Shown: piece after piece, positions 7,153-43,136 of the stretch
How the letters are laid out: each line of letters starts with the position of its first letter
Position numbering within the stretch: the stretch's first letter is position 1
Assembly (NCBI GenBank): GCA_963823995.1
Contig: CAWGNQ010000006.1
Location: 503,685-567,684 of the forward strand
Source of the DNA: an uncultured Acidobacteriota bacterium
Lineage (GTDB): Bacteria; Acidobacteriota; UBA6911; RPQK01; JAPXNP01
DNA: 64,000 nt
Direction: 5' to 3'
Program-made: the position numbers and the translations under genes
Notes under the pieces: generated by a model
The model's input: only the letters and a program-made list of their open reading frames with translations
The model's database searches: none
What the model was told of the DNA's origin: nothing

Positions 7153-8676
7153 CTGGGAAAGCGGAAGCTTCGCGCCTCCGCTTCCGCGCTCCAAAGCGGC
7201 TTCGCCGCAGTATTGCTGCTGATCCGTCTCACTTCTCTCGGCTTTGCTCAAAATGCCGTGCCGCCGCCGCTTCCCGTGATGCCGATTCCCACTGAACGGC
7301 AGCTGGAATGGCAGCAGCGCGAGCTGGCCATGTTCGTCCATTTCACCGTCAACACCTTCACCAACCGGGAATGGGGAGACGGGACCGAGGATCCTGCAAT
7401 CTTCGATCCGTCGGAGCTCGACGTCGTCCAGTGGGTAAAGGCGGCCCGGGAATTCGGTTTTCGTTCCGTCGTCTTGACCGCAAAGCATCACGACGGCTTC
7501 TGTCTCTGGCCCAGTCGCTACACCGATCACTCGGTTCGCAGCAGCCCCTGGCGCGACGGTCGTGGAGACGTGGTGGGCGAACTCGCCCGGGCCTGCTCCA
7601 AGGCCGGGATCCGCTTCGGAGTCTATCTGTCACCCTGGGATCGTCACGAACCGAGCTACGGGAACGAGCTTCAATACAACCTGTACTATCTGGGACAGCT
7701 GCGCGAACTGCTGACGGGCTATGGACCGCTTTCCGAGGTCTGGTTCGACGGCGCTAAAGGTGAAGACGCCCGGGACATGAACTACTATTTTCAGACGTAC
7801 TGGGCCCTGGTCCGCCAGCTGCAACCGGGTGCCGTCATCTTCTCGGACGAAGGCCCCGACGTCCGCTGGATCGGAAACGAGCGCGGAAGCGCCGGCGAGT
7901 CCTGCTGGTCGATGCTGGATCGATCCAGAGTGTCGGTCGGGAAATCCGACACCGATTACCTGAATACGGGCGATCCCGACGGACCACAGTGGGTTCCTGG
8001 AGAAACGGACGTCTCGATCCGCAAAGGCTGGTTCTGGCATCCCGATCAGAAGCCGAAGTCGGTCGGGGAACTCGTTGACATCTACTTTCACTCCGTAGGA
8101 CGAAACAGCGTGCTGCTTCTCAACGTGCCTCCGGACAACCGGGGAAGGCTTCCTGAGCCCGACGTCCGCCGGCTTCGGGAATTTCGGAGCGCTCTGGATT
8201 CGATCTTCCGAAAGGACCTGGCTGCGGGGGCGACCGGTCGGGCCGGCAATGTACGGGGAGGGTCACCCGATTTCGGTGTGGAAAAGACGCTGGACGGTCA
8301 ACTGGAAACCTACTGGGCGACGGATGATGCTGCTCGATCGGCGTGGGTGGAATATGATCTGGGCAAACCCCGCCGCTTCAATGTCTGCCGGTTGCAGGAG
8401 CCGATCCAACTGGGTCAGCGCATCAGGCGCTATCGCCTCGAAGTCGAGACTCCGTCGGGCTGGAAGGCCGTTGCGGAAGGAACGACGATCGGGTACAAGA
8501 AGCTCGACCGATTCGAGCCGGTGGAGGCCCGACGTGTCCGGCTGCGGATTCTGGATTCCCGGGCTTGTCCGTTGCTCGCGGAGTTCGGGCTCTACTTCGA
8601 TCCCGGCCGGGGGACTCGTGCCGCTCGAGCAGCGGCTCGGGGCCTGAAGAAGACAACAGTCCGAGAGCTTCGATGA
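7153..8676 (+). CDS. GH29 alpha-L-fucosidase with C-terminal F5/8 type C (discoidin) domain; start codon unresolved
   Basis: Shows ERQLEWQQRELAMFVHFTVNTFTNREWGDGTE and VVLTAKHHDGFCLWPSRYTDHS (GH29), plus a C-terminal TYWATDD...discoidin-like region. The signal-peptide-like KRKLRASASALQSGFAAVLLLIRLTSLGFAQNA has no in-frame ATG or GTG; CTG 7153 and TTG 7211 are candidates. ATG 7131 is 1 nt out of frame immediately before a C5 homopolymer at 7149-7153. Confidence 0.75.
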   Translation: MGKRKLRASASALQSGFAAVLLLIRLTSLGFAQNAVPPPLPVMPIPTERQLEWQQRELAMFVHFTVNTFTNREWGDGTEDPAIFDPSELDVVQWVKAAREFGFRSVVLTAKHHDGFCLWPSRYTDHSVRSSPWRDGRGDVVGELARACSKAGIRFGVYLSPWDRHEPSYGNELQYNLYYLGQLRELLTGYGPLSEVWFDGAKGEDARDMNYYFQTYWALVRQLQPGAVIFSDEGPDVRWIGNERGSAGESCWSMLDRSRVSVGKSDTDYLNTGDPDGPQWVPGETDVSIRKGWFWHPDQKPKSVGELVDIYFHSVGRNSVLLLNVPPDNRGRLPEPDVRRLREFRSALDSIFRKDLAAGATGRAGNVRGGSPDFGVEKTLDGQLETYWATDDAARSAWVEYDLGKPRRFNVCRLQEPIQLGQRIRRYRLEVETPSGWKAVAEGTTIGYKKLDRFEPVEARRVRLRILDSRACPLLAEFGLYFDPGRGTRAARAAARGLKKTTVRELR

Positions 8677-24959: not shown

Positions 24960-26360
24960 ATGAGACACGTTCGAATGACCGAAAGGAGGAGCGCTACCGC
25001 GCCGTCGATGCCGGCTCGCGAAAGCGAAGCCGAGCTCGACCATCCTCCGCCCCTTCCGACCGCTACGGTGTCCGCACGCTCCGCGCCGACACCATCGGAT
25101 TCTTCTCCTTTTCCCGCAAGACAACCGTTTCCGCAGGCTCAGTGGGCCGACTGGCGCTGGCAGTTGCGTCATCGCATCCGGTCGGTCGAACAGCTCCTGG
25201 AGTATTTTCCCGGAGTCCAGGAAACGGACGCCTTGAGGCAGGCCTCGGACCGATTCCCTCTGGCCGTTACGCCCTACTATGCCTCACTCATCCGCAGCGT
25301 CGGGGTCGACGACCCGGTCTACCAGATGGCGGTGCCCCAAGTCGGAGAGCTCTTCGACGGACCGTTTCTCACCGAAGACCCACTGTCCGAGGATGAAGAC
25401 ATGCCGGTCCCCGGTCTGGTCCATCGCTACCCGGACCGAGCACTTCTGATTGCGACGTCCGCGTGTGCGGTCTACTGTCGTCACTGTACGCGTAAACGGG
25501 TCACGGGCCACCGGGAAACCATGATCAGCCGCACCGATCTGGACCTCGTCATCGGGTATCTGCGGCAGCACCCGGAAATTCGGGATGTCATCGTCTCGGG
25601 CGGAGATCCGCTGACTCTGGCTACCGAGGTACTGGAAGAGATCCTCGCCGCCCTGCGTGCCGTGCCGTCCGTGGAGATCATCCGGATCGGCACCCGAACT
25701 CCGGTGACACTGCCCATGCGCATCACCGATGAGCTCGTCGAGATGCTGCGGCGCTACCACCCGGTCTTCGTCAATGCGCACTTCAATCATCCGGTGGAAC
25801 TGACGGCCGACTCAACCGAGGCCTGCCTCAGACTCGCGGACGCAGGCATTCCCCTCGGCAATCAGTCGGTCCTGCTGCGGGGGGTCAATGATTCCCCACT
25901 GGTCCTCGAGACGCTCTTCCGGTCTTTGTTGCGCATTCGAGTGCGTCCGTACTATCTGTTTCAGTGTGACCTCGTGAGAGGAGTCGAGCATTTCCGTACG
26001 CCCATTTCGAGGGGATTGGAGATCATGGAGTACCTGCGGGGCCGGTTGAGCGGTCTGGCAATTCCGACCTTTGTCGTCGATGCTCCACACGGCGGTGGAA
26101 AGATCCCCCTGCTGCCGACCTATATTCTCTCCATGAGCCCGACCCACACGGTACTGCGCAACTTCGAGGGGCTGATCGTCTCCTATCCGGAACCGGCCGC
26201 CGCGGAGCTCCAGCTTCCCGGTTCGGCCCGCGACGGGACGCGGGGGGGAGTCTGGGAGGTTGCCACAGGAAGGCGGTCCCACCTGCAGCCGGAACAGATG
26301 GAGCGGCAGGAGCGACGGTCCGCGAATGGGCGATCTCGTCGGACAGGTGAACCTCGATGA
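24960..26360 (+). CDS. KamA-family radical-SAM 2,3-aminomutase (lysine 2,3-aminomutase-like) with a Pro/Ser-rich N-terminal extension
   Basis: Radical-SAM CAVYCRHCTRKR (CxxxCxxC), VIVSGGDPL, and the KamA core WQLRHRIRSVEQL...LLRGVNDSP...YYLFQCDLVRGVEHFRT. The substrate (lysine, glutamate or arginine) cannot be read from the sequence by eye. Confidence 0.8.
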   Translation: MRHVRMTERRSATAPSMPARESEAELDHPPPLPTATVSARSAPTPSDSSPFPARQPFPQAQWADWRWQLRHRIRSVEQLLEYFPGVQETDALRQASDRFPLAVTPYYASLIRSVGVDDPVYQMAVPQVGELFDGPFLTEDPLSEDEDMPVPGLVHRYPDRALLIATSACAVYCRHCTRKRVTGHRETMISRTDLDLVIGYLRQHPEIRDVIVSGGDPLTLATEVLEEILAALRAVPSVEIIRIGTRTPVTLPMRITDELVEMLRRYHPVFVNAHFNHPVELTADSTEACLRLADAGIPLGNQSVLLRGVNDSPLVLETLFRSLLRIRVRPYYLFQCDLVRGVEHFRTPISRGLEIMEYLRGRLSGLAIPTFVVDAPHGGGKIPLLPTYILSMSPTHTVLRNFEGLIVSYPEPAAAELQLPGSARDGTRGGVWEVATGRRSHLQPEQMERQERRSANGRSRRTGEPR

Positions 26361-28099
26361 TTCGGATTCGCCGGGTCTACAGCACAGCGCTCTCCGTCGA
26401 TCGACAGCGCCTCGATCAAGTTCGGCAGATCTTCCGGGCGAACTTTCCTTCGGTGGCCGGATATGCCGACACGCTGGCCCACAAGCTCGATCATCCGTTC
26501 AAATACGGCTATCGTACCTTCCTGCTGGTCAGTGAATCGTCGCTCGCCAAGGTCACCGGATTCTCGCTTTTGCTTCATTTGCCGGAGGTCAACAGCACGG
26601 TCCTCGACTTCATCGCGGTCGGTCGAACGATTCGAGGCGGTGGCGTCGGCACTGCCCTCTACGAGTCCACGCAAAGTTACCTGAAATCCATCGGTTCACG
26701 AGGTCTCTACATGGAGGTGCTCCCGGATGATCCCGCGGTCGTCAAGGATCGCCGCGAACTGAGGGAGAATCGGCGTCGACTCGCTTTCTACGAAGCCCAC
26801 GGTGTTTTTCCGGTCATCGGAACCGAATATGAAACGCCCATCGACGAGTCGCCCGCACCCTATCTGCTGTTCGATCCCCTCGGCCGTAAGGGGCCTCTCC
26901 GCCGATCCGAGGCGCGGAACGTCGTACGCCTTCTGCTGGAGCGCAAGTACTCACACGTGGTTCCACCGGCCTATATCGAGCGGGTCGTCGAGTCCTTCAC
27001 GGATGATCCGGTGCGCATGCGGGAGCCGCGCTATGGCGGCGAGAAGCCCGGCCAGGCAATTCCGCGGGTTTCCGGGAGCGAGTTGCTGGCGCGCCCTTTC
27101 ATCCTGGTTTACGATGATCGGCACCGCGTCCACCATGTCCGTGAGCGGGGCTATGTCGAACGCCCGGCGCGCGTCAAGGCGCTGGTCGAGTCACTGCGGC
27201 CGACCGAGCTCTTCAATGTCGAGGCGCCCCGGAATCACGGCGAGAGTGCGATCCGGAGGGTCCATGACGGTGGTTTCGTCTCATATCTGAAGGCCGTCTG
27301 CCGGACCCTGGAGCAGGCGAAGCCGGTCTATCCGTACGTCTTCCCGATCCGACGCCCCGACCGTAAACCCCGGGAGCTGGCCATCCGTGCGGGCTATTAC
27401 TGCATCGATACGTTTACTCCGCTCGACCGGAATGCCTATGAAGCCGCCCGGGCCTCGGTCAATGTGGCCCTGTCCGCCATGGAAAAGCTGATTCGGGACG
27501 GGTCCGGACTCGCCTATGCTTTGTGCCGGCCACCCGGTCACCATGCCGAGCGCAAGGCATTCGGAGGTTTCTGCTATTTCAACAACGCGGCGATTGCCGC
27601 CAGTGAGCTGAGCCGTTTGGGGCCGGTCGCGCTGCTCGACCTCGATTTTCACCACGGAAACGGAACGCAGGACATCTTCTATCGACGATCGGACGTCTTG
27701 ACCGTTTCGGTTCATGGACATCCGAATTACGCCTATCCCTATTTCTCCGGCTTCGGCGATGAGACGGGCGAAGGGGAGGGGAAGGGCTTCAACTTCAATT
27801 TTCCTCTGCCGGAGGAGTCCGGACCCGAGCGTTACTTCGAAACGCTGCAGAAAGCTCTCAAACAGGTTCATCAGTTCAAGCCTCGTTTCCTCGTTGTTTC
27901 GCTCGGCTTCGACACGATGACGGGAGATCCCACCGGGGCCTTTCTGCTGACGGCGGCCTCCCTCCGGGAAATCGGTCGTCGATTGGGGCGCCTGAACCAC
28001 CCGACCCTCGTCGTGCAGGAGGGTGGCTACAACCTGCGTAACCTTCGCCGGGGTGCTGTTGCGTTCTTTTCGGGTTTTGGAGAGGCATTGTGGACCTGA
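26357..28099 (+). CDS. Fusion protein: N-terminal GNAT acetyltransferase plus C-terminal class-II HDAC-like / acetylpolyamine amidohydrolase deacetylase
   Basis: N-terminal GNAT motif A DFIAVGRTIRGGGVGTALYE. C-terminal HDAC signatures CRPPGHHAERKAFGGFCYFNNAAIAA and LDLDFHHGNGTQDIF with the downstream GFDTMTGDP. Overlaps the kamA-like gene by 4 nt. Confidence 0.75.
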   Translation: MIRIRRVYSTALSVDRQRLDQVRQIFRANFPSVAGYADTLAHKLDHPFKYGYRTFLLVSESSLAKVTGFSLLLHLPEVNSTVLDFIAVGRTIRGGGVGTALYESTQSYLKSIGSRGLYMEVLPDDPAVVKDRRELRENRRRLAFYEAHGVFPVIGTEYETPIDESPAPYLLFDPLGRKGPLRRSEARNVVRLLLERKYSHVVPPAYIERVVESFTDDPVRMREPRYGGEKPGQAIPRVSGSELLARPFILVYDDRHRVHHVRERGYVERPARVKALVESLRPTELFNVEAPRNHGESAIRRVHDGGFVSYLKAVCRTLEQAKPVYPYVFPIRRPDRKPRELAIRAGYYCIDTFTPLDRNAYEAARASVNVALSAMEKLIRDGSGLAYALCRPPGHHAERKAFGGFCYFNNAAIAASELSRLGPVALLDLDFHHGNGTQDIFYRRSDVLTVSVHGHPNYAYPYFSGFGDETGEGEGKGFNFNFPLPEESGPERYFETLQKALKQVHQFKPRFLVVSLGFDTMTGDPTGAFLLTAASLREIGRRLGRLNHPTLVVQEGGYNLRNLRRGAVAFFSGFGEALWT

Positions 28100-28174
28100 T
28101 GGATTCCGGGCGGTGAACTGCCTGTTCCGATACCGAATCGATCGGCGGCCGCTTTACCAGGGGGCGATAGGGCA

Positions 28175-29164
28175 ATGAAGACAGGTCTGGTCTACGATCT
28201 ACGCGATGACTATCTGGCCGAAGGCTGGACGGCCGAAGAGGCGGCTGAGTTCGATTCCGTGTCGACGATCGACGCACTCGTGGAGGCATTGGGCACTCTG
28301 GGGCACGATGTCGAGCGGATCGGGCATGCTCGGCGCCTTTGTGCCCGAATCGTCGAGGGTGCTCGATGGGATCTCGTCTTCAATATCGCGGAGGGCGTGA
28401 AGGGGAGAAGTCGCGAGGCTCAGGTTCCGGCCCTGCTCGAACTGTTCGACATTCCCTATACTTTTTCCGATCCGCTGGTCTGTGCGGCAACCCTCGACAA
28501 AGCCGTTGCGAAGCGGCTGGTCCGTGATGCCGGTCTGCGGACGCCTGATTTCGTTGTTCTCCGCAACCCTGCGGAGATTGCGTCGGTCGACCTGGTTTTT
28601 CCGCTCTTCGTCAAGCCTCTTGCGGAAGGAACGGGGAAGTGGATCGACTCGACTTCAAGGGTCGAGGATCACGAGGGTCTGCAGAGCGTCTGCATGAGTC
28701 TCCTGGCCCGCTCCGGCCAGCCCGTTTTGGTCGAGGAGTACCTCCCGGGTCGGGAGTTTACGACGGGGATCGTCGGTACCGGCTCCCGGGCACAGATCGT
28801 TGGCAGCATGGAGATCACCATCCGCCAGAGCGCCGGAACGGCCGATTATTCCTACACAGTCAAGCAGGAGTGGCGGGAGTTGTGCGACTATCCCGTCCTG
28901 GAGCCGGGAGGGCTGAAGGACGAGGTCGAGAGACTCGCACTGGATTCCTACCTCGCCCTCGAGTGCCGGGACTTGGCCCGGGTGGACCTGCGGCTGGATC
29001 GCGACGGACGCCCCTCCTTCGTCGAGATCAATCCGCTGCCGGGCTTGAATCCCGTCTATTCCGATTTGCCGATTCTCTCGCGCCTGAACGGATGGGAGTA
29101 CGTTGACATCATTCGGGCGGTCGTGGACAGTGCCCTGGAACGGCATGAAGGAGGTGGGCGATGA
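28175..29164 (+). CDS. ATP-grasp ligase, D-alanine-D-alanine ligase (Ddl)-like
   Basis: FPLFVKPLAEGTGKWI, VLVEEYLPGREFTTGIVG and RVDLRLDRDGRPSFVEINPLPGL are ATP-grasp motifs of Ddl-type amino-acid ligases. 329 aa. Confidence 0.7.
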   Translation: MKTGLVYDLRDDYLAEGWTAEEAAEFDSVSTIDALVEALGTLGHDVERIGHARRLCARIVEGARWDLVFNIAEGVKGRSREAQVPALLELFDIPYTFSDPLVCAATLDKAVAKRLVRDAGLRTPDFVVLRNPAEIASVDLVFPLFVKPLAEGTGKWIDSTSRVEDHEGLQSVCMSLLARSGQPVLVEEYLPGREFTTGIVGTGSRAQIVGSMEITIRQSAGTADYSYTVKQEWRELCDYPVLEPGGLKDEVERLALDSYLALECRDLARVDLRLDRDGRPSFVEINPLPGLNPVYSDLPILSRLNGWEYVDIIRAVVDSALERHEGGGR

Positions 29165-30699
29165 AGCCGGCTGAGGTCCTGATTCTCCACAACCTGCCGG
29201 CGGAGCAACCAGCTGTGGGCCTGGAGCGATTTCCGGAATCGGATGAGGGGGTTCTCCGTGAGGCAGCTGCGGTCGCAGACGCCCTTGTGCGGCTCGACGT
29301 CGGATTTCGCAGGGCCGGCGTTCGCACCTTCGAAGACGTGGTCAGTGCCGTCTCGGGAGGGAGAGAATGGCTGGTCGTGAACCTCGTCGAGAGTCTGGGG
29401 GCTGATGCCGCCGACGCCTGCTACGTCCCGATGGTGTGTCGTGCTTTGGGGCGGCAGTTCACCGGAAGTGACAGCCGTTGTCTTGCGATGACCCTGGACA
29501 AGAATCTGGCGAAGTGCGTCTTGCGGTCGCAGGGTGTGCGGACGCCGCAATGGCTTTTCGTGCCTCGCGGCAGTGACGTCGTGACGCACCCGGATCTCGT
29601 TTTTCCGGTCATCGTCAAGCCGGTCGCCGCGGATGCCAGCGAAGGCATCGACCCGGCTTCTGTCGTGAGGCAGCCGGGCATGGAACTGGTGTCGGCCATC
29701 CGGAGGATCCACGAGCGGATGGGACAGGACGCCCTGATCGAGGAGTTTGTGGCGGGCAGAGAATTCAATATTTCGCTTCTTCAGCGAGGCACCGCTCTCG
29801 AAGTCCTGCCGCCGGCGGAGATCGAGTTCGTCGACTTTCCGGCGGGAAAGCCTCGTATTGTGGACTATGCGGCCAAATGGCTTCCCGCCACCTTCGAGTA
29901 CCGGAACACGGTTCGAAAGGTCCCTGCCGAAGTGGACGGACCTCTGGCAAGCGAGATCCGATCGATCGCCCTGGCCGCTTGGGCCGCGGCCGGATGCGGA
30001 GACTATGCGCGGGTGGATCTGAGACTCGACGGCCAGGGAGTGCCGTTTGTCCTTGAAGTGAATGCGAACCCCGATATTTCCCCGGATGGCGGTTTTTCGG
30101 CGGCTCTCGAGGCCGCCGGTGTGACGTTTGCGGACTTTGTGGCGAGTCTCCACGAGAATGCTTCGGCCCGAAGGCGTCCCCTGCAGCTACCGACTCGACG
30201 GATCACGGTCGATGACCGTCTTCGGATTCGCAGGACCGAGGCCGGTGACCGGGACGGGATCGTCAGCCTTCTTTCGGCGACGGGCTTTTTCAAACCGGAC
30301 GAGCTCACGGTCGCAGCTGAAGTGCTTGACGGGACCGTTGCACCGGACAGCACGCATTATCAGTCCTACACGTGCGAGCAGGACGGTTTTCCGGTCGGGT
30401 GGGTCTGCTGGGGCCCCACACCCTGCACGCAGGGAACGTTCGATCTCTACTGGCTGGCAGTCTCGCCGCTCGAGCAGGGGAGGGGCATCGGGAGGCTTCT
30501 GATGCAGTTTGCCGAGGAAAGCATCCGGGACCAGGGTGGGAGGATCATCGTGGTCGAGACCGCCGGCCGCTCGGAGTACGCACCGACGCGGGCGTTCTAT
30601 ACGAGAATCGGCTACTGGGAGCAGGCAAGACTGGTCGACTTCTATGCTCCCGGTGACGACAAGGTCCTTTTCACGAAGCAGTTTCCGCTCGGTGTCTGA
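29161..30699 (+). CDS. Fusion protein: Ddl-like ATP-grasp ligase plus C-terminal GNAT acetyltransferase
   Basis: ATP-grasp: FPVIVKPVAADASEGI, LIEEFVAGREFNISLL and RVDLRLDGQGVPFVLEVNANPDIS. The C-terminal ~170 aa form a GNAT (LAVSPLEQGRGIGRLLMQFA). Overlaps the previous gene by 4 nt. Confidence 0.75.
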   Translation: MKPAEVLILHNLPAEQPAVGLERFPESDEGVLREAAAVADALVRLDVGFRRAGVRTFEDVVSAVSGGREWLVVNLVESLGADAADACYVPMVCRALGRQFTGSDSRCLAMTLDKNLAKCVLRSQGVRTPQWLFVPRGSDVVTHPDLVFPVIVKPVAADASEGIDPASVVRQPGMELVSAIRRIHERMGQDALIEEFVAGREFNISLLQRGTALEVLPPAEIEFVDFPAGKPRIVDYAAKWLPATFEYRNTVRKVPAEVDGPLASEIRSIALAAWAAAGCGDYARVDLRLDGQGVPFVLEVNANPDISPDGGFSAALEAAGVTFADFVASLHENASARRRPLQLPTRRITVDDRLRIRRTEAGDRDGIVSLLSATGFFKPDELTVAAEVLDGTVAPDSTHYQSYTCEQDGFPVGWVCWGPTPCTQGTFDLYWLAVSPLEQGRGIGRLLMQFAEESIRDQGGRIIVVETAGRSEYAPTRAFYTRIGYWEQARLVDFYAPGDDKVLFTKQFPLGV

Positions 30700-30945
30700 C
30701 CGCTCCAGCAGGTACGACTCGATCTCGTCCCAGTAGCCCTGGTCGACGCGGACCTGCTTACAGGACGAGCAGATGGACATCAGACCTCGCTCGATCGGCG
30801 CCCATAGACGAAAAAAGGGCGCCGCGATTGTGCTGCAAGCAGCAGTATTCGCGGCGCCCTGGACGAAGCCGTTACCTGGAATGCCGGACGGCGGGTTGCG
30901 CCGTCCGGTCATGGCGGCGAACATCCTCCGTGATCAATTCGAAGA

Positions 30946-31293
30946 TCAGCGCGAGGCGTGGGCCGCCTGTTGAATGGGCATACCCGCTTCCCGCCAGGCC
31001 TTCATCCCGCCTTCATAGCGGTCGACATGCTCGTAACCTTCCGACTCCAGTTTCTTGGCGGCGGTTTCGGAGGCCGTACAGTCGGACCCGGCACAGTAGA
31101 CGACGATTCGGTGCTCCTTATTCTCCGCTCGTCTGCCGACTTCTCTCAGGAAATCTTCGCGTTCGAGCGGAATGTTCAGTGAGCCCGGAATATGTCCCTC
31201 ATCAAAACTATCCTCGCCCAGCACGTTGATCAAAAGGAAGTCCTCTTTGCGCTTTCTCATATCTTTCAATTCGTCAGTTGACAGCTTTCTCAT
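30946..31293 (-). CDS. Single-domain rhodanese-like sulfurtransferase
   Basis: 115 aa; FLLINVLGEDSFDEGHIPGSLNIP...IVVYCAGSDCTAS (rhodanese active-site loop with Cys). GGAAGGAAAGG Shine-Dalgarno 5 nt upstream of the ATG. Confidence 0.7.
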   Translation of the reverse strand: MRKLSTDELKDMRKRKEDFLLINVLGEDSFDEGHIPGSLNIPLEREDFLREVGRRAENKEHRIVVYCAGSDCTASETAAKKLESEGYEHVDRYEGGMKAWREAGMPIQQAAHASR

Positions 31294-31600
31294 AATGACC
31301 TTTCCTTCCTGATCCTCTGTGACGATAAGTCACATTGGATCATATATTTAAATGATCATATATCTATGTTTCCGAAAATTCGTTGCGAGCACTGTAAAGT
31401 GCCATTTACATAGTCATACAACCAACAAATTAATTATATCAATGGATAGGTCGCATTTCAAAGATGGCTTTGCTGACGTCGAGTCACAGTCACACCACAG
31501 CTCATATAGCATCACAGCCGTGATGATCGGAGGCACCCCGCTCTGTCGCGGGCCGGGTTCGGCGACGCGACACCGCTTCACTGAGGTACTTCTCGCGCTA
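31294..31600. other. AT-rich ~300-bp non-coding spacer between the encapsulin and rhodanese genes, carrying the direct repeats GATCATATAT (31339-31348 and 31354-31363)
   Basis: GC content is strikingly lower than the surroundings. There is no convincing ORF (the listed 107-aa and 77-aa ORFs have no support). A 7-bp inverted repeat TGTCGCG...CGCGACA lies at ~31539-31567, just 3-prime of the encapsulin stop. Confidence 0.5.
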
Positions 31601-32404
31601 TTGCGTCTTCCACTGAATGGGAATGACGGCTGTGCCGTCGAGGACACGAAACGTGAATGTCTCGGTGAAGTATAGCTGGACCTTCCTGGTGTCGTGGTGG
31701 TGGTAGCCGATGGCCAAGTCCTGCCCCAAGGTCAGCTTCATGTCCCCGCCGCGCAAGGAGACGAGCACGGTCTCCTGGAGGAACGGACTGAGGATGATCG
31801 GATTCCCGAGCAGCCGTTCGAGGTGCGTCTTCAGCGGGTAGCACTGGTTGTGTTCGCTGATGCCCTGCCAGAGCTTCGAACCGGCGACCAGAACGTAAGG
31901 CCCATCCACGCCGTTCCGAGCGAATTTGGTGATCCCCACTGCTACGGCCTCGAGCAGGTTTGCGGGATCACCGGAAAAGCTGAGTTCGTCGTACTTGCTG
32001 CACTCGCGCAGACCTTTGATCCCACCGGCGGAAAAACCGTGGTAGATCGCCTGTTCTTCGAACATCGCGATCTTGCGGGCGGCATCTTCCAGGGGGAGGA
32101 GATCGATCGCCTCGTCGCCCCGGGAGGCATTGTCCAGCTCCCAGACATCCAGTTCGAAAAGAATACGAGACTCGATGAGGGGACGAACGGCTCGGATTCC
32201 AAATCCGACTTCTCCCATCGAGGCCTCGTCGGCGTTTGTAAGGCGGCCCAGGGGAACGGCCGAGTAGTCCCATCCGTGGGGACCTGCCACATCGACGATC
32301 CGACGTCCGGACAGGGATGCCCGCAGGACCTCCTGTGCTCGGTGGTCGATGGACTTCCAAGCGGCTTCGGTGATGGGTGCGAGTTCTCTTCTCAAGATGT
32401 TCAT
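31598..32404 (-). CDS. Family 1 encapsulin nanocompartment shell protein (linocin M18-like, HK97 fold)
   Basis: MNILRRELAPITEAAWKSIDHRAQEVLRASLSGRRIVDVAGPHGWDYSAVPLGRL...ILFELDVWELDN...GPYVLVAGSKLW...GQDLAIGY...QLYFTETFTFRV aligns along its whole length with T. maritima-type encapsulins. AAGGAG Shine-Dalgarno 6 nt upstream. Confidence 0.9.
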   Translation of the reverse strand: MNILRRELAPITEAAWKSIDHRAQEVLRASLSGRRIVDVAGPHGWDYSAVPLGRLTNADEASMGEVGFGIRAVRPLIESRILFELDVWELDNASRGDEAIDLLPLEDAARKIAMFEEQAIYHGFSAGGIKGLRECSKYDELSFSGDPANLLEAVAVGITKFARNGVDGPYVLVAGSKLWQGISEHNQCYPLKTHLERLLGNPIILSPFLQETVLVSLRGGDMKLTLGQDLAIGYHHHDTRKVQLYFTETFTFRVLDGTAVIPIQWKTQ

Positions 32405-32439
32405 CGTCGACTCCTTTGACTCTGTACCCGGAGGCGGGG

Positions 32440-32799
32440 CTATTCGTTCAGTTCCCTGAGACCACCGATGCTCAGCCCCTCTCCCGGAGATCCTCCTTCA
32501 GCTGAATCCGAGTCCTCTCCGATCGAGGTGATGTCTCCCTCGGTAAACAGGTAGGTGTGCATTCGTGCGTCCCAGCCCGGCATGTTGCGTCGCAACCATT
32601 CGAGCGTCATGCAGGCATGTTCCATTTCCTCGTCTCGATTGTGGGCGAGGATGGCCTTCAGCTCCTCGTTGTCGGACGATGCGATACGCTGCTGGTACCA
32701 GTCTACAGCTTCGACTTCCTCGATCAGACTGCGCAGGGCCCGTACGTAATCGCGGTCCTGCTCAGACATTTGCTCCGGCGGCTCGTGGTAATCGGTCAT
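32440..32799 (-). CDS. Encapsulated ferritin-like cargo protein (EncFtn/Flp) with C-terminal encapsulin targeting peptide
   Basis: The start is set at the internal ATG 32799 (GGGAGG Shine-Dalgarno 5 nt upstream). EEVEAVDWYQQRIASSDNEELKAILAHNRDEEMEHACMTLEWLRR is nearly identical in pattern to characterised EncFtn proteins. The C-terminal EGLSIGGLRE matches the GSLxIGSL cargo-loading motif. Confidence 0.85.
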   Translation of the reverse strand: MTDYHEPPEQMSEQDRDYVRALRSLIEEVEAVDWYQQRIASSDNEELKAILAHNRDEEMEHACMTLEWLRRNMPGWDARMHTYLFTEGDITSIGEDSDSAEGGSPGEGLSIGGLRELNE

Positions 32800-33070
32800 C
32801 TGAACCTCCCGTCGGTTTGTTGGATTTTCAATCGGCGGCGGTGTGAGCCCAACGACTCTCGAATCGAGCCCTGCTGGCAAGCGGAAAAAGTTGTCTACAA
32901 ATGACTTACATGGTGCCGCCGCTTTCAGTATACAGAGCTGCGGAGGAAACCGACAAGCGATGGGGACGAATACCGGAGAGCGCCACCCCGACTTGCCAAC
33001 TCCGGCCCGGGCCGGTCGCCAAGGGCTGAGGAGTTCCTGGAAAGGAGACCGGAGCCTGGAAACGGGAAAA

Positions 33071-33114: not shown

Positions 33115-35517
33115 CTACTGGGAGGAGCGTTGGAACTCCAGCCGTCCGAGATTGTAGCCTCCCACGGGCATCTCGAGCCGCAGCGTGTGGTTCCCCGCGT
33201 TCAGGAGAAGACCGACGAGGTGTAGGGACATCCAGTTCTGCCAGCCACCGGTCAGGGGAACCGGAATCGGCTGCGGCGAAAGTGCCGTGCCGTCCCACCG
33301 GACCTGCAATCGACCTCCGGTCTGCGGCGTAGCGACCCGGATCTCCAGGTCGTAGAGCCCGGTCTCACCGACATTCACGGTATAGGAGAGCCACTCGCCG
33401 GTCTCGATCCAGCCCACGTCGAAGGGCGCGCCATCCGGATCGGTCGAGGTCTCGATGTCGACCCCGTCGTTGCGATATTGCCACCCCATGTTCCAGGGCG
33501 TACTGTCGACGTAGTTGTCCCGCTGTGAGCGTCCGTCGTGATAGGAAGTTCCGTCGGTTCCCAGGTCGTAGTCGACCGCATCGATCACGCCGGGAATCGT
33601 CAGTTCGCGAGAGGGAACCGGGGCGGTGCCGCGATTCGGATCGAACAGCGCAAACAAAACATCCGGATGCTCGGTGCAGGATGAGAGTGCGAGATGGTCG
33701 GCCATATCGAGGAGCGCCGTTCGGGCCGAATCGGCCGTCGGACGAACGGTCGTGCGACCTTCCCAGTAATCCAGAAGGCTCTGGTAATCGGGAGGGATGG
33801 GCGCGGAGACCGGGCTCGAGATCGTTTCGAGCTTCTTGTGGGTCCACCAGCACCAACCGATGTCGCCGCGTTCAACCAAGTCCACCGATTGAGTCGCCCA
33901 GACATTCGAATTCTCTCCGAACTCCCCGAGCCACAAAGGCGCCTGCGTGGTCTGCCGGAGATTCAGGAATGCCTGGATGGAGTTCCGGTCGGTCCCGTTC
34001 CAGTACTTGTGAAAGCTGTAGACGAGGTTCGAATCGAACGGTGGAGTGAGATTCGAGAAATCCGTGGCGTACCAGCTCCCCTCTATGAAGAGTATATGGT
34101 CGGGATCGACCTCACGAACGGCACTCGCCAGTCGGATGTAGAGGGACCGGAGATCCTGATTGCTCGTTCCCTGGGGCATGACCGGCTCGTTCAGCAGGTC
34201 GTAGCCGATCAACCAGGGATCATCGGCGAACCGGCGGGCGATCTCCCGCCAGATGCGCACGCTGAGATCGCGATGCGATTGACCGGCAGCGCCCCAGAGA
34301 AGAGCGCCTGTATCCTCCGGACTGTCCGAGATGTTGTCGCCGTTTTGTCCGCCCGGTGCACAGTGCATGTCGAGGACGACCGCAAGGCCGTGGCGACCAC
34401 ACCAGTCGAGGAGACGCCTCAGCAGAAGAAAGCCTTCCTCCCTGAAGCCGTCGCTCGACGGATCGTAGATGTCGAGGTAGTGGAACGGCAGACGAATCGA
34501 ATTGAAGCCCCAGCGAGCGATCTGGTCGATGTCCGCTTCGGTCACGTAGCATTCCCGGTAACGGGCGAAGAATTCACGCGTCGTCTCTTCACCGGCCAGG
34601 TCCTGGATCATGTTCCGGATCGAGGTCGGCGATCCGTACCCGGGCAAGTGCAGGATGTAACCTTCGGGGACCAGCCAGCCGCCGAGGTTGATGCCCCGAA
34701 GGAGAATCGGGTCACCGAGCGGGTCGAGGATGCGAGTCTGCGCTGTCCGGAAATAGCCGGAGGTCGGGGAGGGGAGTGTCATCAGGGCCCCGTCGGCCCC
34801 CCGCTGGACGAGAGCCATCGTCGCGACGGGTCCTCCCTGTGTGACCTCCAGCGTCATACTTCCGAGGAACGGGGCGGGATGCTCCTCGAAATAGGTCTTG
34901 AAGAATTCGGCTTCCGTGATGAATTTGCTGAGTTGTCGATGAGGCTCGAGCGTGATATCCCCTTCGGTCACGACCTCACCGGCGGAGTCCTGAAGTGAGG
35001 TGTGCACCTTTGTTGAACGTGTGCCGGGATTGTAGATCGCGACGGCTGTGCTCTCGCTTTGCGTGACCCGGACGACCTGTCGTTGACTTGCTGCGGCCGT
35101 CGAAGCAGGGACGGAGACGAGGTGCCCCAGAACTTCGTAGACCAGGATCCCCGTCAGCGAGGCCCCGGGCGGAGCGAAGCTCACCACAACGGTGCCGTTC
35201 AGAAGCGCACCCGTTCCGTCGGTCTGAAGCTCGAACGTCCCGAGAGGTGGAATTTCGAAAGAGGCCGAACTGAGATCGGTACCGCCGATCGGGACTGTCA
35301 AAGCCGTGCTGTCGGGAGCGAAGAACCGGATCTCACCCGAGACGGCAGCCTGACTCTGATTCATCAAGGTCAATCGGCTGCGGTTCGGAAGGCCACCCTC
35401 GACGGTGCCGTTGACGAACTGCGGGAAGAGCAGATTGGCTCCCCAGGCGGTGGAAATGTCCGGGTAAACGAGGAACGCAAAGTAGACCACAAGGAGGATT
35501 TCAACAGCTCGACGCAT
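33115..35517 (-). CDS. Secreted GH5 endo-glycanase (cellulase family) with an N-terminal Ig-like region and a C-terminal CBM6/35-like domain
   Basis: The start is set at the internal ATG 35517 (MRRAVEILLVVYFAFLVYPDISTAWG signal). GH5 motifs GINLGGWLVPEGY, FNSIRLPFHY, AVVLDMHCAPGGQNG and LIGYDLLNEPV. The C-terminal TGGRLQVRWDGT...GGYNLGRLEF is CBM-like. Confidence 0.75.
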   Translation of the reverse strand: MRRAVEILLVVYFAFLVYPDISTAWGANLLFPQFVNGTVEGGLPNRSRLTLMNQSQAAVSGEIRFFAPDSTALTVPIGGTDLSSASFEIPPLGTFELQTDGTGALLNGTVVVSFAPPGASLTGILVYEVLGHLVSVPASTAAASQRQVVRVTQSESTAVAIYNPGTRSTKVHTSLQDSAGEVVTEGDITLEPHRQLSKFITEAEFFKTYFEEHPAPFLGSMTLEVTQGGPVATMALVQRGADGALMTLPSPTSGYFRTAQTRILDPLGDPILLRGINLGGWLVPEGYILHLPGYGSPTSIRNMIQDLAGEETTREFFARYRECYVTEADIDQIARWGFNSIRLPFHYLDIYDPSSDGFREEGFLLLRRLLDWCGRHGLAVVLDMHCAPGGQNGDNISDSPEDTGALLWGAAGQSHRDLSVRIWREIARRFADDPWLIGYDLLNEPVMPQGTSNQDLRSLYIRLASAVREVDPDHILFIEGSWYATDFSNLTPPFDSNLVYSFHKYWNGTDRNSIQAFLNLRQTTQAPLWLGEFGENSNVWATQSVDLVERGDIGWCWWTHKKLETISSPVSAPIPPDYQSLLDYWEGRTTVRPTADSARTALLDMADHLALSSCTEHPDVLFALFDPNRGTAPVPSRELTIPGVIDAVDYDLGTDGTSYHDGRSQRDNYVDSTPWNMGWQYRNDGVDIETSTDPDGAPFDVGWIETGEWLSYTVNVGETGLYDLEIRVATPQTGGRLQVRWDGTALSPQPIPVPLTGGWQNWMSLHLVGLLLNAGNHTLRLEMPVGGYNLGRLEFQRSSQ

Positions 35518-35614
35518 TGCGCCCGAGTCTAACAGTCCTCGTCGCGAAATCGCCAGCGAAAGCGGGTCGGGAGCGGAGGGAGCCGTGAGTTCCCGGCGCT
35601 GCTTCCGATCTTCG

Positions 35615-37312
35615 TCAGTACCGTTCTTGCCCGGGGAGCAGCGGATCCAGAGGGGAGGCATACCAGGAAGATCCTCCCTCGACCAGGTTCCAGCCCCAGT
35701 CGACCGAGAGGCCCAGGCCCAGAGGCGTACGCACTCGTAACTCGACTCCGGCATCTGCAAGCCAGCCCTGTGACCGTGGCGTACGCGGTGCTCCCCACGC
35801 CCTTCCAAAATCGAGAAACGGGGCCAGTTCGATGTCGAGCAGGCCGTTGCTCCACAGCCGCTTCTCGATTTCCGAGCGGACCAGATGCTTCCGCGTACCG
35901 AACGGGGCATTGCCTTTGAATCCGTCGAATGTAGCGATGTGGCCACGCAATCCCGTGGGATCATCACGGTCGAATCCGATGAAGAAGAGCGCATCGAGGG
36001 CCGGAGAGCCTCCAATAACGCCGCCCCGATAGGCCAGCCCCACCCGCCAGTCGAGCTCTCCCGGATCGAGATACGCGGATAGATCTGCGCCTCCTTCAAA
36101 CCGGATCATCCGCGTGCGCCGGCCAGCCAGGGTGCCTCTGCCGGTCAAGCGGCCGAGTGCCCTCAGCTCGAGCCGGTGCTTCGGCAGGTAGACCAGAGTT
36201 CTTTCGAGGCTCGTAGAATATTCGAGTGACCAGCCGTTCCAGTGCAAGGCGCCGGGCGTCGGCTCATGACTCCCGAAATTGAATTTCCTCCACACCAGGC
36301 GGGGGCCGCCGGACCAGTGCCAGCGGGCACCCGGGATCCAGTCGAGCTGAAAGCCGATCGACCTGTGCTCGAGCCCATAGACAGGAAACTGCCCGTTGCG
36401 ATCGGGTCCGTTGCCCCGCAGCTTCCAGTCCTCGTCTCGGAGGTCGGTTCCGAGAGACCAGCGCCACTGAGGATGGAGGGCAAACGGCCTTTCCAGGCGG
36501 CTCAGTAGCCTCTCTTTGCGAGCATCCCAACGAAAGAGCGTGTTGAGGTTCATCGCGGCTCGGTCCAGGTTGAACAAATCGGCGTGGATCGTCTGGTAGG
36601 GAAGTCCGCGCGCTGCCGAAAACAGCGCAGACTTCCTTCCGCCGAGCAAACCACGTCGTTCGAGCGCCGAAACGATGACCGTGAATCTCGAGTCCCGGTC
36701 CGGGTCGAGGCGGACGTTCAGACCCGTGTAAAGATGGAGTGTCGTCAGCTCCGCCAGCGTGTCGCGCAGCTCCTGCAATCGAAGAGTCTCTCCGGGTACG
36801 ATCGGAATGAGCCGGTTCCGGAGCAGAGGATCCAATCGCGTCCCCGACTCCAGTCTGACCCCCGAGATTTTCGGCTTGTCGATTCGATTCCAGAACTCCA
36901 AAGTCGAGGGGAGGTCTCCGCTGAGATAGCAGGTCGTACCGAGAAGGTCGAGGGCATAGGGATCTCCCGGGTTGAGGTGTAGGGCCCGCTCGACAAATCG
37001 TCGGGCCCGGTCCAGGTCACGGACTGTAAATGCCAACCCTCCCAGCTCGAGAGGAAAGCGGTAGTCGTCCGGAAAGCGCTCGCGCCCCGTTTCGAGGGTC
37101 GACCTGGCCGATTCGCTCCGGCCCAAACGAGCCTCCGCGAGCCCCCGGTAGTAGAGGACATCGGCGGCAGGAAGCGGCAGCCCGTCGGTCAGTTGCAGCA
37201 CTTCGTTCCAGCGCCCTGCCTGTGCGAGCCGACGCAGATCCTCGCGGTCCTCGGAAGGCCCGGCAAGCAGGGTACACGTAAGACTCAGAAGCAGAACTGT
37301 GCTGCGGAGCAT
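35615..37312 (-). CDS. TPR-repeat protein with a C-terminal outer-membrane beta-barrel-like domain (Omp85/ShlB-like)
   Basis: Signal MLRSTVLLLSLTCTLLAG. TPR-like helices (YYRGLAEARLG, RALHLNPGDPYALDLLG). The C-terminal half is rich in alternating hydrophobic/aromatic beta-strand patterns and ends in an aromatic residue. Domain family is an inference. Confidence 0.5.
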   Translation of the reverse strand: MLRSTVLLLSLTCTLLAGPSEDREDLRRLAQAGRWNEVLQLTDGLPLPAADVLYYRGLAEARLGRSESARSTLETGRERFPDDYRFPLELGGLAFTVRDLDRARRFVERALHLNPGDPYALDLLGTTCYLSGDLPSTLEFWNRIDKPKISGVRLESGTRLDPLLRNRLIPIVPGETLRLQELRDTLAELTTLHLYTGLNVRLDPDRDSRFTVIVSALERRGLLGGRKSALFSAARGLPYQTIHADLFNLDRAAMNLNTLFRWDARKERLLSRLERPFALHPQWRWSLGTDLRDEDWKLRGNGPDRNGQFPVYGLEHRSIGFQLDWIPGARWHWSGGPRLVWRKFNFGSHEPTPGALHWNGWSLEYSTSLERTLVYLPKHRLELRALGRLTGRGTLAGRRTRMIRFEGGADLSAYLDPGELDWRVGLAYRGGVIGGSPALDALFFIGFDRDDPTGLRGHIATFDGFKGNAPFGTRKHLVRSEIEKRLWSNGLLDIELAPFLDFGRAWGAPRTPRSQGWLADAGVELRVRTPLGLGLSVDWGWNLVEGGSSWYASPLDPLLPGQERY

Positions 37313-37332
37313 GGACGTCGACCCTCAGAGGA

Positions 37333-37866
37333 TCAGTCTACCGATCCGGGCAGTGCAAGCAGAGTCCAGTTGCCGGACGCTTTCCAGCGCTTCACGAAAT
37401 CGGACCGGGGGATGGCCAGAAGCTTGCGCTGGGCCGGATCATTCAGGTAGAGAAGCCCCTCGTCCGTATCGATGCCGACGACGACCACGAAATGAGCAAG
37501 GTCGTCGTCGGTTCCATTCGAAAGGCAAACGATCAAAGGGCGCCCTCTTGCCAGGTGATGTTCGAGATCCCGCTCTTCACCCTGAAAGATGAAGGTCCGG
37601 AAGCCGGTGCGCCTCAGGGCGTTTTCCAGAGCGGCTCCTGTGACGCCCAATTGCGGGTCCGCCTTCAAGGATTCCAGAGGGGAGGTCTTCGACGGTACCG
37701 TGTGACGCCCTCCCGTTCCCAAGGCATCCCAGTACTGTTCCACCATCGCTGCCGCAGCCGGACCGCAACCCCCGGGACCTTGAGCCACGAACGGAACGTC
37801 GATCCACTTTCCGGATGCTGCGGCCACCGTGACCTGCAGGGAGAGGAGCAACGGGACGGCCCACAT
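37333..37866 (-). CDS. Secreted peptidase C39-like domain protein (double-glycine-peptidase-related, PF13529-like)
   Basis: The start is set at the internal M (MWAVPLLLSLQVTVAAASG). IDVPFVAQGPGGCGPAAAAMV (the Cys in a QxxxCG context) and the later LAHFVVVVGIDTDEGLLYLNDP (His region) resemble C39-like domains. Confidence 0.5.
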   Translation of the reverse strand: MWAVPLLLSLQVTVAAASGKWIDVPFVAQGPGGCGPAAAAMVEQYWDALGTGGRHTVPSKTSPLESLKADPQLGVTGAALENALRRTGFRTFIFQGEERDLEHHLARGRPLIVCLSNGTDDDLAHFVVVVGIDTDEGLLYLNDPAQRKLLAIPRSDFVKRWKASGNWTLLALPGSVD

Positions 37867-37891
37867 TCTCCGCCTCACTTGGCAACAGGCC

Positions 37892-38293
37892 TCAGTCGGC
37901 AACAAGGATGAGTACGATGACGGCGGTGCCCAGAGCGATCAGGATGTACGTAATCTGCTGATTGGTCAGAGCCCCTGCACGGACGTCCCTTTGGACGCGA
38001 TCGACCTGATCGGCGAGTCGAGCCAGTTCAGCGTCGCTGAGGGCCGGCACCGCCGCGGTGACCTGCTCGGGGTCGAGGCTCGTCTTCGCAAAGGCATCCC
38101 TGGCGACATCGGATTCGAAGAAACGCTGGATCGCCCGAACGTTGGCTTCGCGCTGGAAAGCTTTCTGCTGGATCGCCCCGCTGAGATCCTTCGATGAGAC
38201 GATATGGTCCTGTTCCCCGGCGGAGAAGATCTCACTGGAGAGTGTGCAGAGGCCGATCACTAAAGCAAGTACGAAAGTTCGTCGTTTCGTCAT
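37892..38293 (-). CDS. Small exported protein of unknown function (N-terminal signal or anchor plus C-terminal TM helix)
   Basis: MTKRRTFVLALVIGLCTLSS...ITYILIALGTAVIVLILVAD; no recognisable domain. Confidence 0.4.
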   Translation of the reverse strand: MTKRRTFVLALVIGLCTLSSEIFSAGEQDHIVSSKDLSGAIQQKAFQREANVRAIQRFFESDVARDAFAKTSLDPEQVTAAVPALSDAELARLADQVDRVQRDVRAGALTNQQITYILIALGTAVIVLILVAD

Positions 38294-38521
38294 TATGAAA
38301 CTCCTCACTGAAGAAGCATTTTGATGGTCGTCGATCTCAGGGTCTGGCCAGTCCACCGTGGACCTTCCGGCCCGGTCGTCCGAAGACCTGAGTGCACTTA
38401 AATCTAAGGATAGCAGGATTTGCTGCAACCAGAGAACAGTCGCCGGCCTCTGGCATTCGCCTGCGCACGAGTGTACTCTCGCAGTCGCAATCTCGAGCCA
38501 TCACATGACGGGAGAATTGAC

Positions 38522-40345
38522 ATGAGTCGCCGTTCTATCCATGTTTCGATTTGCACCCTTGTGACCTTCCTCGTCTTGGTCTCTGCAGGCATGGCCCAGT
38601 CGACCGGCTGGCAACGCGGACAAGGCCCTCTTTCGACGCGCTGGACCAGCCAGGTGTTACCGGCGAACGTGCATCCCGAGTATCCCCGTCCCCAACTGGT
38701 CCGTGATGACTGGCAAAGCCTGAACGGCCTTTGGGACTACGCGATTCGACCCACGAATGCCCCTGCACCTTCGGAGCACTTCGACGGACAGATCCTCGTC
38801 CCGTTTTCCATTACATCGGCCCTTTCGGGTGTCATGGATCAGGTGGGGCCGGGGAACATGCTCTGGTATCGCAGGAGTTTCGAAATTCCGAGTCGTTGGA
38901 GGACGGGACGAGTTCTCCTGCACTTTGGGGCTGTCGACTGGGCTGCGACGGTCTGGGTCAATGGCCACCAGGTCGGCTCCCATGAGGGCGGGTATACGCC
39001 GTTCAGCTGTGATGTGACCTCGGCGTTGGCGGATTCGGCGGGCCAGGAGGTCGTGGTCTCGGTCTGGGACCCGACCGATGCGGGATTCCAACCCCGGGGG
39101 AAGCAAGTACGGAATCCGCACGGTATCTGGTACACACCGACGACCGGGATTTGGCAGACGGTCTGGGCCGAAACCGTCCCCGACACTTACATCGAAGCCA
39201 TTCGGATAACTCCCGACGTCGATGCCGGGGCTCTTCGGCTCTTGGTTCATACGAACCAGAAAACAGCAGGGGTCACCGTCAGGGCCGAGGTTGTCGACGA
39301 CGGCACCGTCGCCTCGGCAACCGGTCGCGCCGGCGACCAGATCGTGCTGGAGATCGATCATCCCAGGCTCTGGTCCCCCGAGACACCCTTCCTCTACGAC
39401 CTGCATGTTTCGCTGATCCGGAACGGGCAAAGCATCGACAGCGTCAAGAGCTACTTCGGCATGAGGAAGATCAGTCTCGGAAAGGGCCCGGACGGCGTGC
39501 TTCGCCTCCTTCTCAACGACAAGGCCCTTTTCCAGTTCGGTCCGCTCGACCAAGGCTTCTGGCCTGACGGCATCTACACGGCGCCGACCGACGAGGCGCT
39601 GCGCTACGACATCGAGGTCACCAAACGGCTCGGATTCAACATGATTCGCAAACATGTCAAGATCGAGCCCGAACGCTGGTACTACTGGGCGGACAAGCTG
39701 GGGATCCTGGTCTGGCAGGATATGCCGAGCGGCGATGCCTACATCCGTCCGAACGAGCCGGACATAACGCGCGTTGCGCAGTCCGCCTACCACTTCGACC
39801 GGGAGTTGAAGGAACTGATCGACAGCCGATACAACCACCCCTCGATCGTGATGTGGGTGCCGTTCAATGAAGGGTGGGGGCAATTCGAGACCGGCCGGAT
39901 CACAAGCTGGATCAAGAACTACGATCCGAGCCGACTGGTCGACAGCACCAGCGGCTGGGCCGACCGGGGCGTTGGAGACGTACACGACATCCACGCCTAT
40001 CCGGGTCCCACGGCTCCGGTCGTCGAACCCTATCGGGCCGTCGTGTTGGGGGAGTTCGGCGGGCTGGGTCTTCCGCTTCCGGGTCATACCTGGCAGTCGG
40101 AGGACAACTGGGGATATCGAAGCTTCAAGAATGCCCAGGAATTGACGGACGCCTACGTGCAGCTCCTCGAGAAGCTGAAGCCGCTCGTTGCCGACCGCGG
40201 CCTGGCAGCGGCCGTCTATACGCAGACGACCGACGTAGAAGTCGAAGTGAACGGGTTGATGACTTACGACCGGGCGGTCGTCAAGATGGACCAGGAGAAG
40301 GTCCGGCAGGCGAACGAGGAGTTATACGGAAAGGTTCCGGAGTAG
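38522..40345 (+). CDS. Glycoside hydrolase family 2 (beta-galactosidase/beta-mannosidase/glucosaminidase-like), secreted
   Basis: The start is set at ATG 38522 (GGGAGA Shine-Dalgarno; signal [26 protein letters not shown]). GH2 sugar-binding region [25 protein letters not shown] barrel with [32 protein letters not shown] and [12 protein letters not shown]. Confidence 0.75.
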
Positions 40346-40387
40346 GACAACCGTCCCCGGTTGTCCCGGTGCCCCGAAAGAACGGTC
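40342..40387 (+). repeat. Copy 2 of the ~46-bp palindromic element, starting at the GH2 stop codon
   Basis: gtaggacaaccgtccccggttgtcccggtgccccgaaagaacggtc: same 8-bp stem as copy 1, with a different loop and one extra C. Confidence 0.6.
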
Positions 40388-40484
40388 TCAGCACGACCCC
40401 CACGGATGCCGAGGCTTCGATGCGCCTTCCAGCTCTTCCGGTGCCCGCAGTTGCGGCAATCGGACAAGCAAGGATGCTTATCCT

Positions 40485-40506
40485 ACTCGGAACTCGGAAC
40501 TCGGAG
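40485..40506 (-). repeat. Three tandem TTCCGAG heptamers (read on the minus strand), just 3-prime of the GH127-like gene stop
   Basis: The plus strand reads ctcggaactcggaactcggag. Confidence 0.5.
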
Positions 40507-40507
40507 A

Positions 40508-43006: not shown

Positions 43007-43136
43007 AACGTTGGTCCTCCCTCCGACGACACCTGCGCCGTCGCGGCGCCCGAAGCCGAGCGAGGCGCAAAGACGGGAATCAGAACCGTAACAAGGAAAA
43101 CGTAAGGATGGCACTGCCCCATGGTTTGCATCACCG

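Follow-up and report, generated by a model that had tools for sequence, protein, structure and literature searches.

The 64,000-nucleotide stretch analyzed here (the window; contig CAWGNQ010000006.1 of an uncultured Acidobacteriota bacterium) carries a family-1 encapsulin locus in which a ferritin-like cargo protein (EncFtn), an encapsulin shell protein and a single-domain rhodanese are encoded in that order on the minus strand, EncFtn at 32799..32440, the shell at 32404..31598 and the rhodanese, beyond a spacer of 304 bp, at 31293..30946. The shell gene begins 35 bp downstream of the EncFtn stop codon. By shell search, the closest named relatives are Acidobacteriota metagenome-assembled genomes, and a shell protein identical to that of the window is found on a 1.5-Mb contig. 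A sequence-only reading of this DNA had described a family-1 shell, an EncFtn cargo with a C-terminal targeting peptide, an AT-rich gap of about 300 bp and a single-domain rhodanese on the same strand, and the profile matches, tail motif and coordinates given here bear out all four. The main features of the locus are:

32927..32956, minus strand: candidate promoter of the EncFtn-encapsulin operon, TTGTCG-18-TATACT (9/12 in a consensus scan)
32440..32799, minus strand: EncFtn, ferritin-like encapsulated cargo, 119 aa (PF22277, TIGR04535, alignment to 5da5)
32443..32484, minus strand: C-terminal targeting peptide of EncFtn, GEGLSIGGLRELNE, read directly from the sequence
31598..32404, minus strand: family-1 encapsulin shell, 268 aa (PF04454, NF041155)
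31294..31597, minus strand: AT-rich spacer of 304 bp (G+C content 0.46) with the predicted rhodanese promoter and 5' leader
30946..31293, minus strand: single-domain rhodanese, 115 aa (PF00581, AlphaFold model)
31078-31095, minus strand: active-site loop of the rhodanese, C67-A-G-S-D-C72, both cysteines invariant in its subfamily

The shell protein matches the PF04454 profile along its entire length (profile positions 1-253 of 253; E=6.9e-83, 278.2 bits against a cut-off of 24.3) as well as NF041155 (278.9 bits, cut-off 100), and has 3111 homologues with E<=1e-30. PF04454 is its sole domain, and the family-2 features that were looked for, a cNMP-binding domain and an extended N-terminus, were not found in it. 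The closest solved shell is the T=1 encapsulin of Thermotoga maritima (E=5e-66 over residues 1-264), a similarity which suggests that the window shell would self-assemble into a cargo-loading icosahedron, probably likewise of T=1 geometry with 60 subunits. In one metagenome copy (L010, 5128-5814) of a related locus type described below (L008), the shell was called at 228 aa with no recorded Pfam match, which could reflect a 5' lesion or an assembly error.

Directly 5' of the shell gene lies a gene encoding a C-terminal targeting peptide, as expected of a family-1 cargo. Its product, translated from an ATG preceded by the ribosome-binding site gggagg, matches PF22277 (E=2.7e-40, 136.5 bits, cut-off 27) and NCBIfam TIGR04535 (155.5 bits, cut-off 125) and aligns with Rhodospirillum rubrum EncFtn (5da5; E=2.9e-30). 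The EE.EAVDWY and EE.EH stretches are kept, with EEvEAVDWYqQR and RDEEmEHa of the window set against EElEAVDWYdQR and RDEEkEHa of 5da5, and the metal-binding residues of the R. rubrum protein are conserved in this alignment. In the R. rubrum structure, the Glu/Glu/His form the ferroxidase center and the Trp and Tyr lie nearby. The EncFtn tail fits the pattern L-[GS]-I-G-x-[LI]-[KR], and of 75 distinct EncFtn C-termini taken from related loci, nearly all end the same way, as judged by reading the listed tails. In L005 (4605-4958), and in L006 and L007 too, EncFtn ends in GQGLGIGDPRRP, a degenerate targeting motif, yet the shell gene next to it is intact.

By sequence, this arrangement is that of the EncFtn systems of R. 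rubrum and Haliangium ochraceum (5da5, 7oe2, 7odw): the cargo-then-shell order of two genes, the C-terminal targeting peptide and a shell of about 265-270 aa with PF04454 only are shared, whereas the window host belongs to another phylum and its tail reads LSIGGLRE in place of the commoner LGIGSLK or LGIGKIKK. The T. maritima encapsulin (maritimacin, T=1; 3dkt, 7k5w) also encloses a ferritin-like cargo, although the two shell sequences have diverged. By analogy with these three systems, EncFtn oligomers with a di-iron ferroxidase center would dock in the shell via the C-terminal LSIGGLR and oxidize Fe(II), and the iron mineral would stay inside the shell. The candidate promoter at 32927..32956 could serve both genes of this operon; nucleotide similarity to the related loci L008, L001 and L002 starts at window position 32966/32961, just 5' of it.

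The rhodanese matches PF00581 (E=3.3e-17, 63.2 bits, cut-off 22.2) and passes no NCBIfam model. Its AlphaFold model (predicted local distance difference test score 91) has a template modeling score of 0.82 to the solved rhodanese 6mxv, with Cys67 aligned to the loop cysteine of that protein, and it shares 26-33% sequence identity with the nearest solved structures. In its fold and in where the catalytic cysteine sits, the protein resembles generic single-domain rhodaneses such as GlpE, PspE, Francisella 6mxv and Anabaena Alr3790; the loop differs, being of CX4C form (CAGSDC) with an acidic residue and without the Arg/Thr typical of thiosulfate-using enzymes. Cys67 is likely to be a persulfide carrier and Cys72 is possibly a resolving cysteine. 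Compared with orthologues, the ratio of nonsynonymous to synonymous divergence (dN/dS) is 0.06-0.14, at synonymous distances (dS) of 1.6-3 that are saturated; where kept, the rhodanese is thus a working gene under purifying selection. Its adjacency to the shell gene is what would speak for a second cargo packaged in the shell, a proposal that we rejected as almost certainly wrong, since the C-terminus (...MPIQQAAHASR) holds no targeting motif of the L-x-I-G-x-L-K type, there is no N-terminal extension, the gene has a predicted promoter of its own and it has been lost in relatives.

That promoter lies in the most AT-rich part of the window. The core of the spacer (31201-31500) has a G+C content of 0.39, the lowest of any 300-nt stretch in the 64 kb (mean 0.604, standard deviation 0.033), and a consensus scan found four promoter-like sites in the spacer region against 0.7 expected. 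The features of the spacer are:

31433..31461, minus strand: near-consensus sigma-70-type promoter, TTGAAA-17-TG-n-TATAAT (11/12, extended -10)
31310..31342, minus strand: inverted repeat GATCC..GTGAC-TTATC-GTCAC..GGATC, abutting the Shine-Dalgarno sequence aggaaggaaagg (31299-31310)

Both promoter hexamers and their spacing are kept in three diverged relatives, as TTGCAG...TGATATAAT in L006/L118 and as TTGAAG...TGATAGAAT in L008, while the remaining spacer has diverged, its length ranging between 186 and 304 bp. The reading that best fits the AT-rich stretch is thus a predicted promoter for the rhodanese itself followed by a leader of about 130 nt, and the rhodanese would be transcribed from it as a separate cytosolic gene. 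Other candidates for the spacer were rejected. A known RNA element is not apparent, as the spacer has no match in Rfam at E<=1. A GC-rich hairpin at about 31530-31570 was considered as an intrinsic terminator after the shell gene; it has no U-tract and a fold z-score of only -1.2, and the minus strand has no predicted terminator anywhere from the shell gene to the rhodanese. The leader folds somewhat better than its shuffles (z=-2.9), and an inverted repeat that differs in sequence sits at the matching leader position in L006 and in L008, as read by eye; a conserved structured leader is weakly supported, with RNAalifold giving -11.6 kcal/mol for six leader sequences and a covariation term of only -1.13.

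Two kinds of repeat were also seen around the rhodanese promoter. The sequence ATATATGATC occurs in two exact copies 16 nt apart in the leader (31338-31366) and is specific to the spacer of the window, and palindrome-like GTGAC-N5-GTCA(C) sites at 31474-31489 (5' of the -35 hexamer) and 31317-31334 (beside the ribosome-binding site) flank the promoter. Neither GTGAC-N5-GTCAC nor ATATATGATC is enriched elsewhere in the window, and the palindrome-like sites are not above chance at window level and not conserved in relatives.

The history of the junction can be followed in five layouts of one Acidobacteriota clade, compiled from the contexts of the closest shells and the closest rhodaneses. The fullest layout is that of L008-L017 and L019 (shell 82% identical to that of the window), in which EncFtn, the shell, the rhodanese and a 293-aa multi-pass membrane protein are encoded by four co-directional genes. 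In the window, the rhodanese is kept and the membrane-protein gene has been reduced to an internal fragment:

30695..30786, minus strand: pseudogene remnant of the membrane-protein gene, encoding ...MSICSSCKQVRVDQGYWDEIESYLLE... (blastn, phmmer)

The remnant is 84% identical over its 92 nt to L008 7251-7342 (blastn), and its product matches residues 233-265 of the L001 membrane protein (phmmer E=4.7e-12); the remaining gene is deleted. In L006 the rhodanese is present and the membrane-protein gene has left no trace, and L118 shows the same encapsulin-rhodanese junction on a contig that ends too soon to see the next gene. The converse is found in L001 (shell 84-85% identical), where the membrane-protein gene is kept and the rhodanese survives as a 56-nt internal fragment (1627-1682, 88% identical to L008 6050-6105), and in L002-L004 the membrane-protein gene follows directly after the shell gene and the rhodanese is absent. 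These layouts interleave on a neighbor-joining tree of the shells, from which at least two losses per accessory gene follow. Each of the two downstream genes is missing from some lineages and is therefore dispensable to the encapsulin.

The membrane-protein gene appears to be the fourth gene of an ancestral cluster. It is intact at L008 6552-7433, L001 1838-2761 and L002 4093-4977, and its product matches no Pfam or NCBIfam family (the best hit being a weak one to DUF5985, E=0.0015) and has a C-terminal CxxC...CPxC motif (ICSSCKK.RDDQGYWDEIESYLL-x5-FSHxxCPxC). Together, the AT-rich spacer and the remnant at 30695-30786 had at first been read as a foreign rhodanese cassette that recently replaced the membrane-protein gene. 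This was rejected, as both genes are present in L008-L019, L001 pairs an intact membrane-protein gene with a remnant of the rhodanese, the rhodanese occurs in the basal L006, and the G+C content at third codon positions of the rhodanese is only modestly lower than that of its neighbors in all three lineages (0.62-0.65 versus 0.68-0.81).

Facing the rhodanese, a convergent cluster on the plus strand (24960-30699) encodes a radical-SAM lysine-2,3-aminomutase-like enzyme, a GNAT-histone-deacetylase fusion and two ATP-grasp ligases, one of them GNAT-fused. This cluster, functionally unrelated to the encapsulin, is shared by the window, L001, L006 and L008, four of the five focal lineages, and absent from L002; an intact rhodanese is found in three of the five. 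Since the ATP-grasp cluster is kept more widely than the rhodanese, the conserved adjacency of the latter is explained by general collinearity.

All of these observations make it likely, in our view, that EncFtn and the shell form a classical two-gene family-1 encapsulin operon and that the rhodanese is a separate gene with its own promoter and an inherited position. A single operon of the three genes is not what we find: the gap is 304 bp, an 11/12 promoter within it is conserved, and the gene order occurs in a single clade, where it has also been lost. The position of the rhodanese would thus be an inherited gene order of this clade, with EncFtn, shell, rhodanese and membrane protein as its fullest form, and the window lineage would have retained the rhodanese while its membrane-protein gene decayed. 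The locus is a known encapsulin system beside a probably independent rhodanese neighbor.

Beyond the clade, the order is rare. Both the rhodanese and the membrane-protein gene are absent from L020 (65% identity), the sister locus in Acidobacteriota, which has a histidine kinase and a sigma-54 regulator upstream and an unrelated 664-aa protein downstream. A wider survey took one genome per species of the Genome Taxonomy Database and covered 80 encapsulin loci, 826 kb in total. EncFtn lies immediately upstream of the shell in 72 of these 80 loci (open reading frame and phmmer scan), whereas a rhodanese lies within 6 kb in only two, L019 of the focal clade and L023 of a GN15 bacterium (WJMS01000114.1). 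Both are in the +1 position, and none was found elsewhere in the flanks. At L023, where the shell is 57% identical to that of the window, the gene for a sulfurtransferase (6850-8148) starts 79 bp after the shell gene and encodes a three-domain, YnjE/SseA-like protein of 432 aa with the loop CGTGWR; the nearest shell relatives of L023, namely L021 (72% identical to it), P0013 (74%) and P0016 (66%), are without a rhodanese. When the focal clade is left out, this amounts to one recurrence in 79 loci, for which the chance is roughly 0.1-0.15 and not significant, a rough estimate based on a background of about 0.2% rhodanese genes or on 0 matches in roughly 800 flanking genes by the same method.

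The sequence-only reading had allowed that the juxtaposition might be coincidental or might link iron storage to sulfur trafficking. Coincidence is favored by these results, and a link at the level of an operon or of the family in general is not supported, given the clade-bound synteny, the losses and the separate promoter; the order which that reading proposed to look for among relatives occurs in one clade only, with an intact rhodanese in three of five lineages there and none in 78 of the 80 species loci. Several points nevertheless weigh against our interpretation. Since no terminator is predicted after the shell gene, co-transcription by read-through is possible. Three lineages have kept the co-directional adjacency at a saturating dS of 1.6-3, and selection on the rhodanese is purifying. 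L023 is a second, differently built rhodanese after an EncFtn-encapsulin pair, although a singleton. Rhodaneses in the flanks were detected with nine phmmer seeds, and Pfam was applied to the 66 immediately downstream open reading frames only. Finally, di-iron proteins occur near distant CX4C members in two of eight contexts (hemerythrin in L102, a ferritin-like protein in L107).

Such points could be accommodated if the rhodanese were an accessory of the EncFtn-encapsulin, either as a persulfide or thiol reductant that mobilizes stored Fe(III) or by coupling iron release to iron-sulfur (Fe-S) cluster assembly. An accessory role would fit the shared strand without a predicted terminator, the persistence of the gene pair in the window, L006/L118 and L008-L019 at saturated dS and low dN/dS, the independent three-domain sulfurtransferase directly after the GN15 pair and the +1 position of both rhodaneses in the surveyed flanks, and it would parallel the rhodanese proposed to remobilize sulfur from family-2A desulfurase encapsulins (PMC8346489, PMC11284452). 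It is, in our judgment, quite unlikely. The rhodanese has its conserved promoter, and the encapsulin is intact both where the rhodanese has decayed (L001) and where it is absent (L002-L004); it is also missing from L020 and from nearly all species loci, the nearest relatives of L023 included, and the single recurrence is within chance. Its arginine-free loop and its homologues in unrelated contexts, described below, likewise argue against this role. A narrower version, in which the CX4C rhodanese would be a lineage-specific partner of the EncFtn compartment (releasing stored iron as a persulfide or thiol donor, for instance, or passing iron and sulfur together to Fe-S assembly), the four-gene ancestral cluster a functional module and the GN15 case an independent invention of this coupling, we hold to be very doubtful.

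The comparison with family-2A systems points the same way. Reports of a rhodanese association concern only family-2A desulfurase operons (PMC8346489), in which a cysteine desulfurase, a serine O-acetyltransferase, a family-2 shell and a rhodanese form a four-gene operon (PMC11284452; PMC8346489), and one sequence cluster holds all encapsulin-associated rhodaneses (PMC11284452). The sequence-only reading, which had called such an association a trait of family-2 and not of family-1, thus agrees with these papers. PMC8346489 catalogs 2,383 family-1 systems. The literature searched does not mention any rhodanese linked to a family-1 encapsulin. Like the window protein, the Acinetobacter baumannii family-2A rhodanese Ab-RLD (8w14) is a single-domain protein of rhodanese fold encoded beside an encapsulin. 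It differs in its shell family and its loop (arginine-rich CRSGNR versus CAGSDC), is 19% identical to the window rhodanese and ranks 32 in the fold search; the window rhodanese also has a predicted promoter of its own. Neither 8w14 nor M. tuberculosis 2fsx is among the phmmer matches of the window rhodanese at E<=1e-3. Within about 12 kb in the window there is no cysteine desulfurase, serine O-acetyltransferase or family-2 shell, nor any other gene of sulfur trafficking or Fe-S assembly.

The relatives of the window rhodanese form a large, uncharacterized subfamily with a CX4C loop. A profile search of 1.84 billion representatives returned 80 clusters at E<=1e-30 and 2,969 at E<=1e-10, and the pattern YC...C..S is kept in all 40 of the single-domain representatives inspected; no report of this rhodanese class was found in the literature searched. 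The subfamily proteins collected here (P0135-P0196) have the invariant CX4C loop and no arginine in it. Members 41-50% identical to the window rhodanese lie in other contexts (with hemerythrin and DUF488, a PNPOx-like protein, an aldo-keto reductase and a ferritin-like protein, or a BON-domain protein), with no encapsulin near them where the upstream sequence is visible. The PNPOx-like neighbor is presumably of the general stress protein 26 type. In this small sample, such neighbors hint at stress-related roles.

It is conceivable that the encapsulin operon and the rhodanese, though transcribed separately, answer to a common oxidative or general stress response, so that their neighborhood would reflect co-regulation with no direct biochemical hand-off. 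The hemerythrin, PNPOx-like, ferritin-like and BON/OsmY-like neighbors of subfamily relatives would fit this, as would the structured leader and the inverted repeats beside the ribosome-binding site of the rhodanese, which suggest regulation, and a role in iron homeostasis and in protection from oxidative stress has been proposed for EncFtn systems (PMC8346489). We consider this possibility unlikely, however, as the promoter regions of EncFtn and the rhodanese share three 8-mers against 2.5 expected from shuffling, so that a shared operator was rejected; moreover, the homologue contexts are few and on short contigs, and no regulator gene is adjacent. A separately transcribed rhodanese in an inherited position remains the reading that we prefer.

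If a rhodanese partnership proved true after all, it would suggest a thiol or persulfide route for iron release, and would extend the pairing known from family-2A to family-1, where no sulfur-transfer accessory of an iron encapsulin has been reported so far. As a negative result, the present analysis indicates that adjacency of a rhodanese should count as a feature of family-1 operons only when expression data or a statistical survey back it. Its by-products are the large CX4C rhodanese subfamily and the unclassified membrane protein with its C-terminal cysteine motif.

The other side of the locus has also changed in gene content. Upstream of EncFtn (window 33115-43114), genes for a GH5-CBM6 cellulase and a TPR protein are inserted between the encapsulin and GH2/GH127 genes, and in L008 the GH2/GH127 genes directly adjoin EncFtn. 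The region upstream of EncFtn is a hotspot for gene gain and loss.

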